UHGV virus genome: UHGV-0420230
Source: a virus
Direction: 5' to 3' (one strand)
Length of the DNA stretch: 42,537 nt
In this document: positions 17,645 to 24,968 of the stretch, piece after piece
Numbering within the stretch: the stretch's first letter is position 1
Layout of the letters: the number at the start of each line of letters is the position of its first letter
Translations under genes and position numbers: made by a program
Notes under the pieces: model-generated
Seen by the model: only the letters and a program-made list of their open reading frames with translations
What the model was told of the DNA's origin: nothing
The model's database searches: none

Positions 17645-18382
17645 ATGCATCGTATAGACACGAAAACCGCGCAGAAGGATAAGTTCGGCGCGGGTAAGAA
17701 CGGTTTTACCCGTGGTAACCCCCAGACCGGCACGCCTGCCACCGATCTGGATGATGACTACTTTGACATGTTGCAGGAGGAGCTTTGCAGCGTTGTGGAG
17801 GCGTCCGGTGCCAGCCTGGATAAGGGGCGGCACGACCAGCTACTTACCGCGCTTCGCGCGCTGCTGTTAAGCCGCAAGAATCCGTTTGGCGATATCAAAT
17901 CGGATGGCACGGTGAAAACGGCTCTCGAAAACCTTGGATTAACCAACGCGATAATTGGTGATACCTGTAAAGAAGCAGGGTTCTACTTAGGAAGTGAACT
18001 TGCCCCTTATCTTATGCATGAGGACACTCACACAGCCATCCGCCTGGTAACGTTGGATAGCGTCCGTCGAGTAACAACCACTACTTACACTATTAATTAT
18101 TACGCGAATGGCTTAATTCAGATTTTAGGTATGACCCCAACAGTAAGCTCTTTTACTCCCCAGACCATGACATTCCCAGTGGCGTTCCCAAATGCTTGTG
18201 TTCGGTTTGCATTGCACAACCAAGAAAGTGGCGTCCCATCCTACAACATGGCGATGTATTCTAATTTAAGCAGAACGGGCGTGAAGATATGGGGAGTGGC
18301 GAACATTCTTGGCAACGGTGGAAGCCCGTCGCTGGGCGCGCTACCGAACGCTGAAATCTCTTATGAAGCATGGGGTTACTGA
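17645..18382 (+). CDS. tail fibre protein (constant N-terminus fused to variable C-terminus, current orientation)
   Basis: 245 aa; a recombination crossover site lies inside the gene at codon ~97. Confidence 0.8.
   Translation: MHRIDTKTAQKDKFGAGKNGFTRGNPQTGTPATDLDDDYFDMLQEELCSVVEASGASLDKGRHDQLLTALRALLLSRKNPFGDIKSDGTVKTALENLGLTNAIIGDTCKEAGFYLGSELAPYLMHEDTHTAIRLVTLDSVRRVTTTTYTINYYANGLIQILGMTPTVSSFTPQTMTFPVAFPNACVRFALHNQESGVPSYNMAMYSNLSRTGVKIWGVANILGNGGSPSLGALPNAEISYEAWGY
17922..17947. other. invertase crossover site (gix/pix-like), left
   Basis: CTCTCGAAAACC-TT-GGATTAACCAAC; left half matches the gix-type half-site (memory) at 8/12 and matches the right-hand site in inverted orientation. Confidence 0.6.
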
Positions 18383-18383
18383 T

Positions 18384-18821
18384 ATGACATTTTTCTACAG
18401 TGCAGCACATAATATTTTTGTTTCAGATATTAACAAAGAGAGCTATGAGGATGCTGGATCGTGGCCAGCAGATGCAAAAGAAGTTTCAGATGAATTATTT
18501 TATCAATATTCGCAAAATCCACCGAAAGGCAAAATTCGCTCCCATGCAGATGGCCTGCCCATCTGGGAAGATGCCCCGCCTATGACTGAAGAAGAACTTA
18601 TTCTGAAAAATAAGAATGAAAAACAAATTCGTATCGATGAAGCCAATAATTATATGCACGGTAAGCAATGGCCAGGTAAAGCGGCTATTGGTCGTCTGAA
18701 AGGTGAGGAACTGGCGCAATATAATTTGTGGCTGGATTATCTGGACGCACTGGAGCTGGTCGATACTTCCGGTGCGCCAGATATTGAATGGCCTACGCCT
18801 CCGGCAGTTCAGGCCAGATGA
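18384..18821 (+). CDS. tail fibre assembly protein (orientation A)
   Basis: Starts 1 nt after the tail fibre stop; C-terminus ...DTSGAPDIEWPTPPA matches the conserved C-terminal motif shared with the convergent partner. Confidence 0.7.
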   Translation: MTFFYSAAHNIFVSDINKESYEDAGSWPADAKEVSDELFYQYSQNPPKGKIRSHADGLPIWEDAPPMTEEELILKNKNEKQIRIDEANNYMHGKQWPGKAAIGRLKGEELAQYNLWLDYLDALELVDTSGAPDIEWPTPPAVQAR

Positions 18822-19386
18822 CATCCGGCGCGGTGCTGGTATCTGTTACCGTCACCGCGTCAATGTAATCCAGCACGGCGTTAAGTCGGGTTGTTTCTGC
18901 CTGAGTCAGCTTCCGTCCGGCCTGTAATTTCAGTTGAATCAGACTGATGGAAGCCATTGCAGCATCAATCAGCGACTGGCGCTGTGCTTCTGCCGCGTCT
19001 AGTGCGGCACTATGCTGTGCCTCAGTATCTGTCACCCATTTCTCACCATCCCATTTATCGTATGGCGTTAACGGTGAAAGCGTGACATAACCGTCTTTGA
19101 TGGCACCGATATAATCCACTGTAACAGCTGCGCCATTTTCGATTGAGTAAACAGTCTCATTGCGGTGGTCTTCTTCATGGCTCCATCCCTTACCCGTAAA
19201 TACTGCCACTTTCCCCGGAATGTATTCGCCCGGGTCAATACCAGTGGAACAGGCGGGCATACTTACGCCAGTATTAATATATTCATCAGACCAGCCCGTA
19301 TATTCAGACGTTACTGCATCATAATAAAAACAACGCATATCACCCGGCACTGTAGCCAGCCCATTTTCATCAAAAACAGGTTTCAT
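18793..19386 (-). CDS. tail fibre assembly protein (orientation B)
   Basis: 197 aa; C-terminus ...DTSTAPDVIWPELPEA; convergent with and overlapping the orientation-A gene. Confidence 0.7.
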   Translation of the reverse strand: MKPVFDENGLATVPGDMRCFYYDAVTSEYTGWSDEYINTGVSMPACSTGIDPGEYIPGKVAVFTGKGWSHEEDHRNETVYSIENGAAVTVDYIGAIKDGYVTLSPLTPYDKWDGEKWVTDTEAQHSAALDAAEAQRQSLIDAAMASISLIQLKLQAGRKLTQAETTRLNAVLDYIDAVTVTDTSTAPDVIWPELPEA

Positions 19387-19853
19387 TATGCAGCCCTCAC
19401 AATATAATTAAAGGCGATGTTACGTGGACGGTTTTCATTAGCTGTTGGCACGACACGAGAGGCGTCGAATCCAAGGTCATCGGTTTTGTCTATAGTAGTT
19501 GTGCTATTCGGCATTCTCGCTGATCGTGTTCCTGCATCGTAAAAAGCCCCTCTGATTGCATCAAAAGACATACCGATCCCGCCATCTGCGAATCCCTCAA
19601 TATTTCTTATTGCATCCCCCTGTGAAGATAATAATTGTCGCCCGGCATCCACTCCACGTCCGTCATCCCAGCCACGAATAAATTCACCGCGTAAATCAGG
19701 CAATTTATTTGTCGGATAAACCTTTGCCAGTTCCGGGTATTCTTCAGCAGAAAAAGCCGCACCATTGCATTTTAGCCAGCCTGTTGGCGGAGTGGCGGAA
19801 GGCCACGGGACAGGCACACCAACGGGTAATGCCGAACCTTCTCCCAAACCAAC
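19386..19853 (-). CDS. alternative tail fibre C-terminal segment (expressed only after inversion)
   Basis: Tail-collar-like sequence (LKCNGAAFSAEEYPELAKVYPTNKLPDLRGEFIRGWDDGRGVDAGRQ); reading frame runs into the right crossover site; NVGL aligns to NLGL at the left site. Confidence 0.6.
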   Translation of the reverse strand, partial: VGLGEGSALPVGVPVPWPSATPPTGWLKCNGAAFSAEEYPELAKVYPTNKLPDLRGEFIRGWDDGRGVDAGRQLLSSQGDAIRNIEGFADGGIGMSFDAIRGAFYDAGTRSARMPNSTTTIDKTDDLGFDASRVVPTANENRPRNIAFNYIVRAA

Positions 19854-19864
19854 GTTTAAGAAAA
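19839..19864. other. invertase crossover site (gix/pix-like), right
   Basis: TTCTCCCAAACC-AA-CGTTTAAGAAAA, an imperfect palindrome with 8/12 matches to a gix-type half on each side; central dinucleotide AA versus TT at the left site, i.e. inverted. Confidence 0.6.
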
Positions 19865-19919
19865 TGCAGAGATTATGGCTAACTGGCATCATCCCCGGTT
19901 TTTACTCATGGGAATGCTC

Positions 19920-20477
19920 ATGCTTATTGGCTATGTCCGCGTATCAACAAATGACCAGAATACGGAATTGCAGCGTAATGCGCTGGAGTGTGCAGGATGT
20001 GAGCTGATTTTTGAAGATAAGATCAGCGGCACTAAGTCCGACCGACCGGGACCGAAAAAACTGCTCAGAACATTATCAGCAGGTGACACTCTGGTAGTCT
20101 GGAAACTGGACCGACTGGGGCGCAGTATGCGGCATCTTGTCGTGCTGGTGGAGGAGTTGCGCGAACGTGGCGTTAATTTTCGCAGCCTGACGGATGCTAT
20201 TGATACCAGCACACCAATGGGGCGCTTTTTCTTTCATGTGATGGGTGCCCTGGCTGAAATGGAGCGAGAGCTTATTGTCGAACGTACTAGGGCGGGCTTT
20301 GCCGCAGCACGACAAGAAGGGAGGAATGGTGGGCGAAAGCCAAAGCTGACAGTAGAACAATGGGAGCAGGCTGGCAGGTTGATTGAATCGGGAATATATC
20401 AGCAGCAAGTCGCACTGATTTATGATCTGGGTATTTCAACGGTGTATAAAAAATTCCCTGTAGCAAGTAAACCATAA
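19920..20477 (+). CDS. serine DNA invertase (Gin/Pin/Hin family)
   Basis: MLIGYVRVSTNDQNTELQRNAL... and C-terminal HTH closely resemble Gin/Pin; start taken at the MLIGY methionine rather than the track start 19875. Confidence 0.85.
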   Translation: MLIGYVRVSTNDQNTELQRNALECAGCELIFEDKISGTKSDRPGPKKLLRTLSAGDTLVVWKLDRLGRSMRHLVVLVEELRERGVNFRSLTDAIDTSTPMGRFFFHVMGALAEMERELIVERTRAGFAAARQEGRNGGRKPKLTVEQWEQAGRLIESGIYQQQVALIYDLGISTVYKKFPVASKP

Positions 20478-20503
20478 CCTTACGCCACATTGATGATCGC
20501 GGA

Positions 20504-21199
20504 TTATGCACTATTTTTAGGTCTTGTAACCCGAGGTGGGAGTTGTTTGGTTATATGTTCAAGTGATTTTTTGCCCAAGATAGTTCTTTGGACAAAACTT
20601 TCTATAGCTTCTAGCATTTGTTCGAACTCACTTTTATTCGGGCTCCAACTGCGATGTGCGGCGGCGTTTCCTGCATCAATTACAGAAGATATAACGCATG
20701 CCTCAGTGTCGCCTATGACTCCATCTTGTTTTAATTTTTCAACTTTTTCACCAAGCGGCAAACCGGGGTGAATTTGTAACAGTTCAGCAGTTCGATCAAA
20801 AATCGTCCGTAAACCGATGGACGAAAGAATGAAATGGTCAGAAGTATATGAAGAATACATTTCATTAAATATTTGAAAGAGCTGACGATCAACTGATTCA
20901 AGCTTGGATAACCATATCGGAGCTTGAAATGTTTCAGCGGCAGGATAGGTAGTGATCATATCTATAGGCGTTTCTACAAATTCACCATCACGATATTCGT
21001 GGGTAGTATGCTCACTGAAGTGTTCGTTGTGGTGATAGAAGACAGTATCACAGCCATTGCATTGGAGTAGGTGATGGTAATGGTACCCATAAACTGGATA
21101 TTGGGAATCCTCCCAGCTAGTGGTTAGCTTCCCATGCACAGTGCAGTTACGTAACCCACCGCATGTAGGGCAAAGAGCCTTGAGTATTTCCTTTTTCAT
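20504..21199 (-). CDS. zinc-ribbon protein with C-terminal DUF4145-like helical domain (candidate defence/accessory gene)
   Basis: 231 aa; N-terminal CPTCGG...C-x16-CNGC; C-terminal ...GNAAAH...EFEQMLEAIESFV resembles the DUF4145 signature (memory); AT-rich; sits where e14 carries mcrA. Confidence 0.65.
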   Translation of the reverse strand: MKKEILKALCPTCGGLRNCTVHGKLTTSWEDSQYPVYGYHYHHLLQCNGCDTVFYHHNEHFSEHTTHEYRDGEFVETPIDMITTYPAAETFQAPIWLSKLESVDRQLFQIFNEMYSSYTSDHFILSSIGLRTIFDRTAELLQIHPGLPLGEKVEKLKQDGVIGDTEACVISSVIDAGNAAAHRSWSPNKSEFEQMLEAIESFVQRTILGKKSLEHITKQLPPRVTRPKNSA

Positions 21200-21547
21200 A
21201 AAGTCTCTGATTCTATATGTAGGTTAAGACCACTATTAGCTATACGGACCTAATAATCAATCGTGTGCAGATACAAAAAAGCCCGTATAGCGGGATTTCA
21301 TGTCACTAAGGGCCGCGGCTACTTTGCGTATCTTTTTTGTCTTCTCACCGTCTGGCCGGTATTTTGCTGAGACTGCTTATTTCCAGTTTTTACTAGTGCT
21401 GTACTGGTACTGCCCAATCATGATTGGTGGGGGACGGAGTTGAAACCGCAGCCACGTCGTATGCAAGAACGCGCTGCGGTTGGCTGGTGAACTTTCGATA
21501 GTGCGAGTATTGAATGATTTCCAGCCGTTACAGATTTTACGTGTTTA

Positions 21548-21796
21548 TTAGTGAACAAACCACTCGTCAGCAGATTCCCAGGTATCTTTCAGAGTCTCCT
21601 GAACAAAAGTTTTTGCAGAATCCTTATCTGCGGTGCGTGTAACAGAAAGGCCATCATTGCTGGTGGCTTTTACTAACACCTCAACATCGTCATAACGCTT
21701 ACTGATGCGTCGGGTTAATTCTTCCTTTAACGCATCCACAGCACCGGTTGGCATTTTAGTCATTTTTTCTTTGGCTATGCAGATTTCAATACGCAT
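21548..21796 (-). CDS. dinI: DinI-like protein
   Basis: 82 aa, [11 protein letters not shown]...[11 protein letters not shown] strongly resembles E. coli DinI; GGAGG RBS. Confidence 0.85.
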
Positions 21797-21811
21797 AAAA
21801 GTCCCTCCATG

Positions 21812-21855
21812 CTGTGTTTGTATACAGTATTATTTTTAACTGTATGGATAAACAG
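21812..21855 (-). promoter_or_regulatory. two LexA (SOS) boxes overlapping the DinI-like promoter
   Basis: CTGT-N8-ACAG at 21812-21827 and 21840-21855; minus-strand TTGACA (plus 21857-21862), 17-bp spacer containing box 2, TAAAAA -10, box 1 over the start region. Confidence 0.7.
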
Positions 21856-21857
21856 TG

Positions 21858-22955
21858 TCAAGAGGTCTTATTTCTGCTCCTTTGGAGCTCTTCAAAACGA
21901 TTATGTAAAGATTTCGGATACAGTTCGGTATATACCTGCCATAGCACGTTTAATGAACGATGCCCTGTAACCTGGGCGACTTCCTCAATACTAAAACCAG
22001 CCTCAAATAAGCGACTTGCCCCTTCTCTACGCAAATCATGGTATCGCAGATCCTTAATACCTAATTTGCTTCTTACTCTCTGAAATCCCGCAGTAACAGA
22101 AGTGCTGTTATATGGAAAAATGAATTCCGATTTTTGGGGCTGTCGTTGGACGATATCCCAGGCTTCCCCAAGCAAGGCTACTTTCATGTGGTTGCCTTCC
22201 TTTTTGCGTGGATCTTTCCTGTCTCTTACGAGTATAGATTTTTGTTCCTGGTCGAGATCTTCCCATCGTAACCGGCATACTTCTCCGATTCGCATACAGG
22301 ACCATACAGAAAATTTGAGGATATCAACGAACGGAATTTTTGAGCATTTATGAGTAGATCGTTGTTGAAGGCCTGCAATGAGCATGTCCAGTTCATCAGA
22401 TGCTGGTCTACGATTACGACGGTTTGATTTACCAATCAAACCAAGTTTAAGTAGATATGGGCGAGCGCTTTTCGCCGGGTTTGATGTGTAATTAATTCCG
22501 TATACAGGTTTGGCCGCATCCAGAACACTGCCAAGATAACTAACATCGTGGCTGACTGTTGCTGGACCTGCACCAGCGTTGTTTCTTAGCCTGCAATGTT
22601 CAATTACGTCATTTTCTGTCAGTTCAGATAGTTTGATCGCGGAGATGTCACTATCCATAAGCAGTTCCAGCACATATCTTTTAGTACGGCCTGCTTTACC
22701 TCCGGCATTTGGGTCATTTAAATATTTGTGTAGTAAGTCACGGACTGTAAGTCCGTCAACTGCATTTGATGATGGAATGCCATATAGATCTAATTCCATC
22801 ACTTTCTGTGTGCCCCATGTTTTGGCATGAGCATGTTTAGGGAATGTTTTGCTTTCCCTGTAAGTGATAACACCTTTTTCTTTGATAATCACATTACAGC
22901 GATAGCGTGGTGTGCCATCGGATTTTAGTCGTTTCTCTATGTTATAGTACGCCAT
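21858..22955 (-). CDS. int: tyrosine integrase
   Basis: 365 aa; C-terminal catalytic region with R, H and Y (...YHDLRREGASRL...GHRSLNVLWQVYTEL); GAGGT RBS. Confidence 0.85.
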   Translation of the reverse strand: MAYYNIEKRLKSDGTPRYRCNVIIKEKGVITYRESKTFPKHAHAKTWGTQKVMELDLYGIPSSNAVDGLTVRDLLHKYLNDPNAGGKAGRTKRYVLELLMDSDISAIKLSELTENDVIEHCRLRNNAGAGPATVSHDVSYLGSVLDAAKPVYGINYTSNPAKSARPYLLKLGLIGKSNRRNRRPASDELDMLIAGLQQRSTHKCSKIPFVDILKFSVWSCMRIGEVCRLRWEDLDQEQKSILVRDRKDPRKKEGNHMKVALLGEAWDIVQRQPQKSEFIFPYNSTSVTAGFQRVRSKLGIKDLRYHDLRREGASRLFEAGFSIEEVAQVTGHRSLNVLWQVYTELYPKSLHNRFEELQRSRNKTS

Positions 22956-22959
22956 TACA

Positions 22960-23216
22960 CGACCTCGTTATTTCGGGTTCCCATAAAACGTGGGAACCTG
23001 AGCGGGAACCTAACGCGAGAAAAATAGCCTGAAATGTTCAAAAATGCACGATAATCATGAAACACAAAAAATTAATCAAACCAGCGTGATGCCTGAAAAA
23101 ACTGGTGTTTACTGGAATTCTCGGTTTAGCATTGCTCCTATGCTCGATAGGATGTACCGTTTTTGAAAAACAACTAGTTATACACTTTGTGGGAGCCTAT
23201 TGGGAACCTGTTATTC
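22960..23216. other. integrase-proximal non-coding region with GGGAACCT repeats (candidate arm-type sites / attP region)
   Basis: GGGTTCCC at 22968, GGGAACCT at 22987 and 22998, GGGAGCCT/GGGAACCT at 23190-23212; about 445 bp without a convincing ORF. Confidence 0.3.
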
Positions 23217-23401
23217 TTAGAAAGCATCATTTGCTCATCACTTCAATTGACCATGGTTAAAGCCAGCTATAAACTTGACAAACGAGGTAACTGGTTGCTT
23301 AGGCCCAAGTGGGCACACCATAAGAAGCTCGTGTTGGTGATGAAGCAACCCATGAAGTATCGAGAATAATTATAAAGTTCACTATCTTTGAGGTTTCTTA
23401 T

Positions 23402-23974
23402 ATGTTTTGCGAAGAAAAAGTAGCTCAAATGGCTGCATACCTACTTCTTAAGCGAGGTGGGCGCATGGCATATCTGAAATTGATGAAGTTGCTCTATCTG
23501 TCTAACCGCCAGTCGATTTTGAAGCATGGCAGGATGATCGGCGAAGATAGCCTTTACTCTATGAAATTTGGACCAGTCATGTCGAATACGCTGAACTTGA
23601 TTCGCGGTAAGGCTGAAGGCATTGGTGACTACTGGTACAACTTGATAGAGACGAACGGGCATAATGTATCGTTGCGTTCAGATCCGAGGGAAATGGATGC
23701 AGACGAGGTCTTTGATGAATTGAGTCGTGCAGATATCCGGATTTTAGATGAAATCTATTCTCGGTATGGGCATATGAACCGATTTGATCTCGCAAATATG
23801 ACGCATTTAGAAAGCGTTTGTCCAGAGTGGCACGATCCTGGCAATTCTCGTAAGCCTATAGACCTGAAAGAAATGCTGATCAGTGAGGGTAAAAGCGAGG
23901 ATGAGGCTAATCGCATAATTGGCAAAATGGAAGAATCTCAGAAACTTAAGGAATTTTCTTTGCAATTATCATGA
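23402..23974 (+). CDS. Panacea (DUF4065)-like domain protein, candidate antitoxin
   Basis: 190 aa; ...YLKLMKLLYLSNRQSILKHGRMIGEDSLYSMKFGPVMSNTLNLI fits the Panacea pattern (LKLQKLLYY...GPV) from memory; GAGG RBS; AT-rich. Confidence 0.6.
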   Translation: MFCEEKVAQMAAYLLLKRGGRMAYLKLMKLLYLSNRQSILKHGRMIGEDSLYSMKFGPVMSNTLNLIRGKAEGIGDYWYNLIETNGHNVSLRSDPREMDADEVFDELSRADIRILDEIYSRYGHMNRFDLANMTHLESVCPEWHDPGNSRKPIDLKEMLISEGKSEDEANRIIGKMEESQKLKEFSLQLS

Positions 23975-24650: not shown

Positions 24651-24932
24651 TTAGTGATGTTCTTTGCCCTTCTGTTTGCTTGTTCTGACCTGTTCCCACT
24701 CGATACGTCCTTCTTCTCGTCTTTTGTCTATGTATTCCGCAAGATCCTGAATATTGATGCAACGTTTTGCTTTTTGTGATGTGCCGATGCGATATGTTGG
24801 AACGGGCAACTTACAAGCGTTTGCTTTTGCTTCTGCCGTGGCTGGACTCATGCCAAAGTACTTTTGGCTAACTGCTGAGAGTTCAATGTTAGGGGTATTG
24901 AATTCAGCCATCAGTAAAAACAAGGTGTTCAT
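24651..24932 (-). CDS. PrtN-family / excisionase-like DNA-binding protein
   Basis: MNTLFLLMAEFNTPNIEL...INIQDLAEYIDKRREE resembles the PrtN/Xis-like family; last gene of the leftward operon. Confidence 0.65.
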   Translation of the reverse strand: MNTLFLLMAEFNTPNIELSAVSQKYFGMSPATAEAKANACKLPVPTYRIGTSQKAKRCINIQDLAEYIDKRREEGRIEWEQVRTSKQKGKEHH

Positions 24933-24968
24933 AATTTTCTCCATCAAAACCGGCTGCACCCGGGAAAA

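Follow-up and report, generated by a model that had tools for sequence, protein, structure and literature searches.

The closest described relatives of the locus considered here are the elements with dusA-associated integrases (DAI), whose target is a semiconserved 21-bp sequence in the 5' part of dusA and which carry a replacement 5' end for the gene (Farrugia 2015, PMC4482086). The Vibrio element IMEVchUSA3 supplies a working dusA promoter together with a 35-residue N-terminus, and its int promoter is constitutively active (Durand 2021, PMC8409611). The same study identified RdfN, a PrtN-like protein encoded across attP from int, as a demonstrated excision factor of a dusA-specific element (PMC8409611). 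Arm sites go unmentioned in both papers (the word "arm" does not occur in either), and no description of arm sites of dusA elements was found in the largely open-access literature searched.

The window analyzed here is a 42,537-nucleotide stretch of viral DNA (UHGV-0420230), and the region of interest is the gap (22956-23401) between its integrase gene, int, and a Panacea-domain gene that starts at 23402. This gap contains the attP of a temperate phage of E. coli whose integrase is of the DAI family, and its GGGAACCT-type repeats probably serve as arm-type sites. The attP is that of a known dusA-specific integrase family and not a new kind of system; what is new is small, namely a family-wide arm architecture with lineage-specific motifs, which goes beyond the published 21-bp core.

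The int gene lies on the minus strand (21858-22955) and encodes a tyrosine integrase of the DAI family, 365 aa long, with the Pfam domain PF00589 at residues 188-346. The search for homologues of this integrase returned 1530 proteins. Residues R222, H306, R310, H332 and Y342 are invariant in a set of 25 homologues as well as in a set of 101, and would correspond to the RHRH/Y catalytic residues. In most of 79 genomes, the integrase homologue is located about 180 bp from the dusA core.

Although the preliminary description of this DNA had seen no convincing ORF in 22956-23401, the 40-codon ORF at 23044-23166 (plus strand) is a real dusA gene fragment, and the part of it that carries the core (23044-23147) had been overlooked. 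The product of the ORF is MHDNHETQKINQTSVMPEKTGVYWNSRFSIAPMLD-RMYRF, the frame in the free phage reaching a stop at 23166. The first 35 residues match the N-terminus of K-12 DusA at 26 of 35 positions, and aligning the sequence with K-12 dusA and the two junctions of lysogens delimits a surrogate dusA 5' end of 35 codons, encoding MHDNHETQKINQTSVMPEKTGVYWNSRFSIAPMLD, at 23044-23147 on the plus strand. The octamer ATGCTCGA (23140-23147) lies at codons 33-35 of this phage-borne 5' end, and the crossover falls within it, inside a core dyad in which TCCTAT and ATAGGA are arranged around GCTCG (23136-23152).

The crossover was located from lysogens. The preliminary description had suggested alignment with prophage-carrying bacterial genomes, and that alignment finds the junctions within 22956-23401, at 23140-23147. 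The int-attP region was matched in 905 of 5426 complete E. coli genomes and was split in all but one, the break lying at window 23131-23147 in about 900 genomes. According to the RefSeq annotation, the int side of the match (window 22700-23147, query 1-448) is joined in lysogens to an intact annotated dusA, and the Panacea side (window 23041/23131-23600, query 342/432-901) is joined to a truncated native dusA 5' end. Several phage records that were deposited in prophage form stop at window ~23147. The lysogen AVS0196, which has the same DUF4145-dinI-int arrangement as the window, breaks at the same point; its left junction is identical to the window from the core to ~23285 and then enters a different Panacea cassette. 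The block from 23148 to 23285 is thus a conserved far-arm segment, ending at a mosaic boundary where homology with other dusA prophages also stops.

When attP, attB, attL and attR are aligned, phage-specific bases run up to 23139 and host-specific bases begin at 23148 at one junction, with the reverse order at the other. Since the phage/host differences at 23139 and 23148 are seen at both junctions, the exchange is confined to ATGCTCGA (23140-23147). This octamer is identical in attP and K-12 attB and its flanks imperfectly so (TTTAGCATTGCTCCTATGCTCGATAGGATG versus TTTAGCGTTGCACCAATGCTCGACTGGACG); this pairwise comparison agrees with the imperfect direct repeats of ~21 bp at attL and attR that characterize DAI elements. 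A half-site dyad of the form CCNAT-5 bp-ATNGG is seen again in relatives, as read from their sequences. In the lysogen, DusA takes its first residues from the phage and is read without an internal stop to the K-12 length of 345 aa. Integration severs the host's own first 35 codons and promoter, and the phage copy (23044-23147) keeps dusA intact.

A few bacterial records show less simple arrangements at or around this site. E. coli GPEC1352 (NZ_CM142780.1, 4545104-4552004) has an uninterrupted int-dusA'-Panacea junction in its chromosome, corresponding to window 22700-23600, with three matching places in the record, and two dusA prophages in tandem are the likely cause. In AVS0196 (NZ_CP124442.1), the far junction directly adjoins zur, with yjbL and yjbM missing, and what remains on the left side of the core resembles a dusA 5' end but diverges from the K-12 sequence; this state suggests earlier insertions or deletions at the site. 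E. coli SX12 carries DUF4145-dinI-int at 99.9% identity both on its chromosome and on a 55.6-kb replicon record (NZ_CP142787.1), and the latter may represent either an excised circle or something akin to a plasmid.

The repeats of the gap lie on both sides of this crossover, and their sequence is distinct from that of the core. The preliminary description had listed three GGGAACCT copies, one inverse copy and one variant, and all five were located as it reported. Exact plus-strand copies of GGGAACCT occur at 22992-22999, 23004-23011 and 23202-23209; the sequence at 22975-22982, GGGTTCCC, is the reverse complement of GGGAACCC, and the variant GGGAGCCT occupies 23191-23198. Three of the copies make up the int-proximal arm (22975-23011): the inverted copy at 22975-22982, which reads GGGAACCC on the minus strand, is followed on the plus strand by a tandem pair, GGGAACCT-gagc-GGGAACCT (22992-23011), which has a 12-bp period and lies 37-56 bp from the int ATG. 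A second plus-strand tandem pair, GGGAGCCT-att-GGGAACCT, makes up the far arm (23191-23209); its period is 11 bp, and it starts 44 bp past the core.

The preliminary reading of these repeats as arm-type sites has held up, because they flank the mapped crossover, and because their layout and distances are kept across the integrase family, with a lineage-specific 8-mer that is concordant between the two arms. This comparison drew on 80 integrase relatives, one genome per species, with 52-99% integrase identity; the 400 bp upstream of int could be read in 78 of the 80, which together with the window gave 79 sequences. A profile search of viral contigs returned almost only relatives that were 98-100% identical, which are of no use for covariation, and the diverse attPs were drawn from tblastn of phage records and from genome contigs. 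Nearly all 79 sequences have a tandem pair of 8-9-mers with an 11-12 bp period, placed 15-60 bp from the int ATG, and the mean length of the matched tandem repeat is 8.8, as against 4.9 +/- 1.1 in shuffles. In many relatives an inverted copy of the lineage's own motif is found at the same place, just before the tandem pair. The repeated word itself differs between lineages: the words include GGGAACCT, GGGGTGCT, GGTGTACT, GGTGTCCT, GGGATACC, GGGGCACC, GGGGTACT, GGAGCACC, GGGATCCT and GGGTACCT, among others. Measured to the core ATG, the core-proximal copy lies 136-137 bp away in 37 of 49 loci, and most of the remaining loci have 3-4 or ~10 bp more.

Both sides of the core could be read in nine elements (the window, YeP2, C5a, AS1, Kp4882-1, IME1369_02, M16-3, ACA1 and a tectivirus-like Vibrio element). 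In all nine, the word of the lineage recurs on the far side of the core, in two tandem copies that are separated by ATT or ATA and follow an 11-bp period, and this far pair starts 43-44 bp past the core in six lineages and 64 bp past it in AS1. The int-proximal motif differs from its own far arm by 0-1 mismatch and from the far arms of other lineages by a mean of 2.15; in a matrix of the nine attPs, the diagonal sums to 5 mismatches against that off-diagonal mean of 2.15 (permutation p = 4e-5). If the words were under selection to be recognized by a single co-evolving protein, one would expect this pattern: a word that changes, a layout that does not, and two arms that change together. The five GGGAACCT-type repeats are thus well supported, by comparison of sequences, as putative arm-type sites.

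The protein best placed to read such sites is the integrase itself, through its N-terminal domain. An AlphaFold2 model of the whole integrase has a pLDDT of 87.5, and the N-domain folded alone reaches 92.9. In this model residues 1-58 form a separate unit, with strands predicted at 2-10, 16-26 and 29-38 and a helix at 41-58, and a low-confidence linker (59-69) leads to the domains for core binding and catalysis. Lambda Int aligns end to end when the full-length chains are used (357-372 columns), versus 292-296 columns for lambda Int 75-356. Searches for a link between the N-domain and known arm-binding families gave no significant match. Foldseek of the isolated domain against the PDB gave nothing significant (best E = 0.045, to unrelated folds); Pfam gave no match at E <= 10, with one homologue showing a sub-threshold Arm-DNA-bind_4 hit (E = 0.19); a profile of the domain had no match among PDB sequences; and hhalign against the lambda Int N-domain gave a probability of 1%. 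NCBIfam returned only generic Xer-like sub-threshold matches. Residues 1-58 are best described as a putative arm-binding domain, a label that derives from position, predicted topology and covariation, and not from family membership.

The covariation is with integrase residues 18-36, which the motif class follows. N-domains of the form ...NVIIKEKGVITYRES pair with GGGAACCT, those with ...TVGVK.GGKYIYREN pair with GGGGTGCT, those with ...TVGIK.GGKHLHRET pair with GGTGTAC, and those with ...SVS.K..GKR.YNES pair with GGTGTCC; motif and N-domain classes both track phylogeny, so that common ancestry partly confounds this correlation. As the N-domain matched nothing significantly in Pfam, among PDB sequences or by fold, it is a candidate for an unclassified arm-binding domain, and it may be, though we put this forward tentatively and with somewhat more doubt than confidence, that such a domain reads the 8-bp word through a small number of residues located in beta strands two and three.

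The main competing explanation is that the repeats are directionality or operator sites, bound by the PrtN-like excision factor or by a repressor of divergent int and dusA' promoters. Excision factors co-evolve with integrases and typically bind tandem direct repeats in att arms; a PrtN-like gene is always near, and in YeP2 it immediately adjoins the far arm; the int-proximal copies fall within the 88 bp that separate the start codons of int and dusA'; and the N-domain has no detectable relation to known arm-binding domains. The motif, however, occurs on both sides of the core at fixed distances. In lambda, the arm sites of the integrase flank the core on both sides, and Xis-type factors bind one arm only. 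YeP2 and Kp4882-1 offer a further, weak, separation of integrase from excision factor: both carry GGGGTGCT and their N-domains are the closest pair (65% identical), and yet their excision factors are 51% identical, no closer to each other than either is to that of the window, and their catalytic parts are 58% identical. The excision factors of the window and AVS0196 are 94% identical, and this pair does not discriminate between the two readings. In addition to the link between motif class and residues 18-36, a mini-element with attP and int alone integrates without the excision factor (PMC8409611), so that the integrase alone must assemble on attP. Recognition by an excision factor or repressor is for these reasons unlikely, and recognition by the integrase is preferred.

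A chance or compositional origin, in a functionless intergenic stretch, is very improbable. The motif is admittedly short. Exact GGGAACCT occurs 4 times on both strands of the 42.5-kb window (1.04 expected), a number reached in 1 of 100 shuffles, and three of the four copies are packed into 218 bp of the gap. Copies with one mismatch show no window-wide enrichment (26 versus 28.6 expected), and the signal is therefore one of local clustering. Some 8-mer is present three times in 6 of 189 tiles of 446 bp, and in about 1% of shuffles of 22956-23401 (51 of 5000). What argues against chance is the recurrence of the five-site layout in some 80 relatives, with differing words, concordant arms and fixed distances.

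The idea, raised as a hedge in the preliminary description, that the true core lies instead in the non-coding segment 21200-21547, leaving the int-adjacent region merely regulatory, has a negligible chance of being right: the segment, 350 bp of non-coding DNA that follows int and dinI and has a mosaic boundary near 21440, is of the kind where many phages keep attP, but 30 lysogen genomes carry window 20300-22000 without interruption at 99.9% identity, the prophage-form records end at ~23147 and the lysogen split lies at 23140-23147, ARAGORN found no tRNA or tmRNA gene or fragment in the whole window, and the segment holds a minus-strand hairpin and T-run (21270-21294) consistent with a terminator. 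The same ARAGORN result led to the rejection of a tRNA-like 3' end that had at first been suspected near 21420-21445. The hairpin, downstream of dinI, consists of CCCGC-TAT-ACGGG followed by CTTTTTTG (the same stem also scored on the plus strand), and looks like the terminator of an int-dinI transcript. Homology to other phages and prophages breaks at ~21440 and ~23285, and between these points lies a portable dinI-int-attP module of ~1.85 kb. To the left, opposed tail-fibre and tail-fibre-assembly ORFs stand beside a Hin/Gin-type DNA invertase (PF00239 and PF02796), and the segment (18309-20477) is probably an invertible host-range segment.

In the proposed model of the reaction, with the integrase as reader of the repeats, its N-domain (residues 1-58) would bind the GGGAACCT-type arm sites as its catalytic and core-binding domains engage the TCCTAT/ATAGGA dyad. 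A bivalent integrase tetramer could in this way bridge arms and core, using the three int-proximal sites (22975-23011) and the two sites that lie 44-62 bp past the core (23191-23209). The arms lie at fixed helical distances from the core, and the bridging would take place on bent DNA. A candidate IHF site, AAACAACTAGTTA (23168-23180, plus strand), has one mismatch to WATCAANNNNTTR and lies between the core and the far arm. Among the attPs examined, all four enterobacterial ones, and none of the five marine ones, have a one-mismatch IHF-like site 19 to 21 bp past the core; no IHF-like site was found in the int-proximal arm.

Excision would be the task of the PrtN-family protein encoded on the minus strand at 24651-24959 (Pfam PF11112, E = 4e-23). 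By analogy this RdfN homologue is the likely excision factor, being encoded across attP from int, and a PrtN-type gene also lies across attP from int in YeP2 and Kp4882. As a separate observation, many relatives have 3-4 A/T-rich direct repeats with a 10-11 bp period at the position of 23012-23075, between the arm pair and the dusA' start. The repeat is AAAATAGCCT or AAAATGACCT in enterobacteria and CGAAATTCAA in the Vibrio and Shewanella types, and some of this stretch coincides with sequence conserved upstream of the native host dusA as well; these repeats are candidate excision-factor sites or phased bends.

The 88 bp from the int ATG to the dusA' ATG (22956-23043) plausibly hold divergent int and dusA' promoters, by analogy with a relative in which the equivalent region drives both int and dusA (PMC8409611). 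Divergent promoters had also been proposed in the preliminary description, there for the integrase and the Panacea cassette. A scan of 21150-23450 for consensus promoters and terminators found nothing above chance for int or dusA'. A promoter-like sequence upstream of the Panacea gene, TTGACC-17-TAAACT (23247-23275, plus strand), could serve the Panacea cassette; it is weak, and three sites were found in the scan against 5.2 expected. As the int-proximal sites lie within the 88 bp between the divergent start codons, integrase bound there could damp both transcripts, and we speculate that it reduces its own transcription and that of the restored dusA.

Across the whole window (42.5 kb) there are 23 copies of the Chi sequence GCTGGTGG, where 1.7 would be expected, and 0 of 100 shuffles reach 23. 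The copies are strongly oriented (20 on the plus strand) and spaced at about one per 1.85 kb; examples are at 2504, 2617, 2860, 31590, 37442, 40277, 40616, 40747, 41251 and 41481. The excess may reflect protection of phage DNA from RecBCD.

The analysis provides a base-precise attP (core, both arms and replacement dusA 5' end) for a common group of E. coli prophages. This int-attP type is found in roughly one in six complete E. coli genomes, and the int-attP module of the Stx-converting phage phiSTEC1575-Stx2k is 97% identical to that of the window. It also provides a testable model, in which five putative arm sites keep fixed distances as their motifs change by lineage along with the integrase N-terminus, and a possible guide for minimal-attP integration vectors and for swaps of recognition specificity. 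If the N-domain does represent a new class, there would be at least ten mutually distinct integrase/arm-site pairs on a fixed five-site scaffold, a set common to tailed phages, tectivirus-like Vibrio elements and mobilisable islands. In that event, the level at which the restored tRNA-modification gene of the host is expressed could also depend on integrase occupancy, since the three sites between the int and dusA' start codons stay at attR.

Among phage records, the closest to the window are SKA5 (OR670062), Lys8385Vzw (MT225100) and mEp460 (JQ182728/NC_019716), with 97-99% DNA identity over the int-attP module. SKA5 annotates the 40-codon fragment as "tRNA-dihydrouridine", and the record stretches examined for SKA5 and mEp460 carry no annotation of attP, core or arm sites. 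All three phages differ from the window in the tail-fibre and invertase module to the left of ~21440. The SXT/R391 elements integrate into the 5' end of another gene, prfC (as cited in PMC8409611). Both their integrase lineage and their target are other than those of the window.

The attP of lambda is the classical point of reference, with arm sites P1, P2 and P'1-P'3, IHF sites H1, H2 and H', and Xis sites. The two attPs are alike in having five arm-type sites (putative ones in the window) spread over two arms around a dyad core (here within ~240 bp, 22975-23209), and tandem arm sites about one helical turn apart; the candidate IHF site here lies between the core and the far arm. The integrases are alike in having a small separate N-terminal domain on a flexible linker, although the two N-domains have no detectable relation in sequence or in isolated-domain fold. 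The arms are split 3+2 in the window, with one inverted site, and 2+3 in lambda. Unlike in lambda, the core of the window lies within the 5' part of a protein-coding gene, and the excision factor is of the PrtN type instead of lambda Xis. In the window the start of int adjoins attP and the gene is read away from the site; in lambda it is the end of int that adjoins attP.

The strongest parallels are with the published DAI elements (PMC4482086, PMC8409611). There, as here, int abuts the dusA 5' end, recombination takes place in a ~21-bp semiconserved dusA sequence, a new promoter and 35-residue N-terminus are supplied, a PrtN-like factor is encoded across attP, and the integrase is related to Rci. 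The phage of the window differs from those elements: it is a tailed phage of E. coli, and a Panacea toxin-antitoxin cassette adjoins its attP. The two papers define the core repeat only, and the five-site arm layout with lineage-specific motifs is described here.
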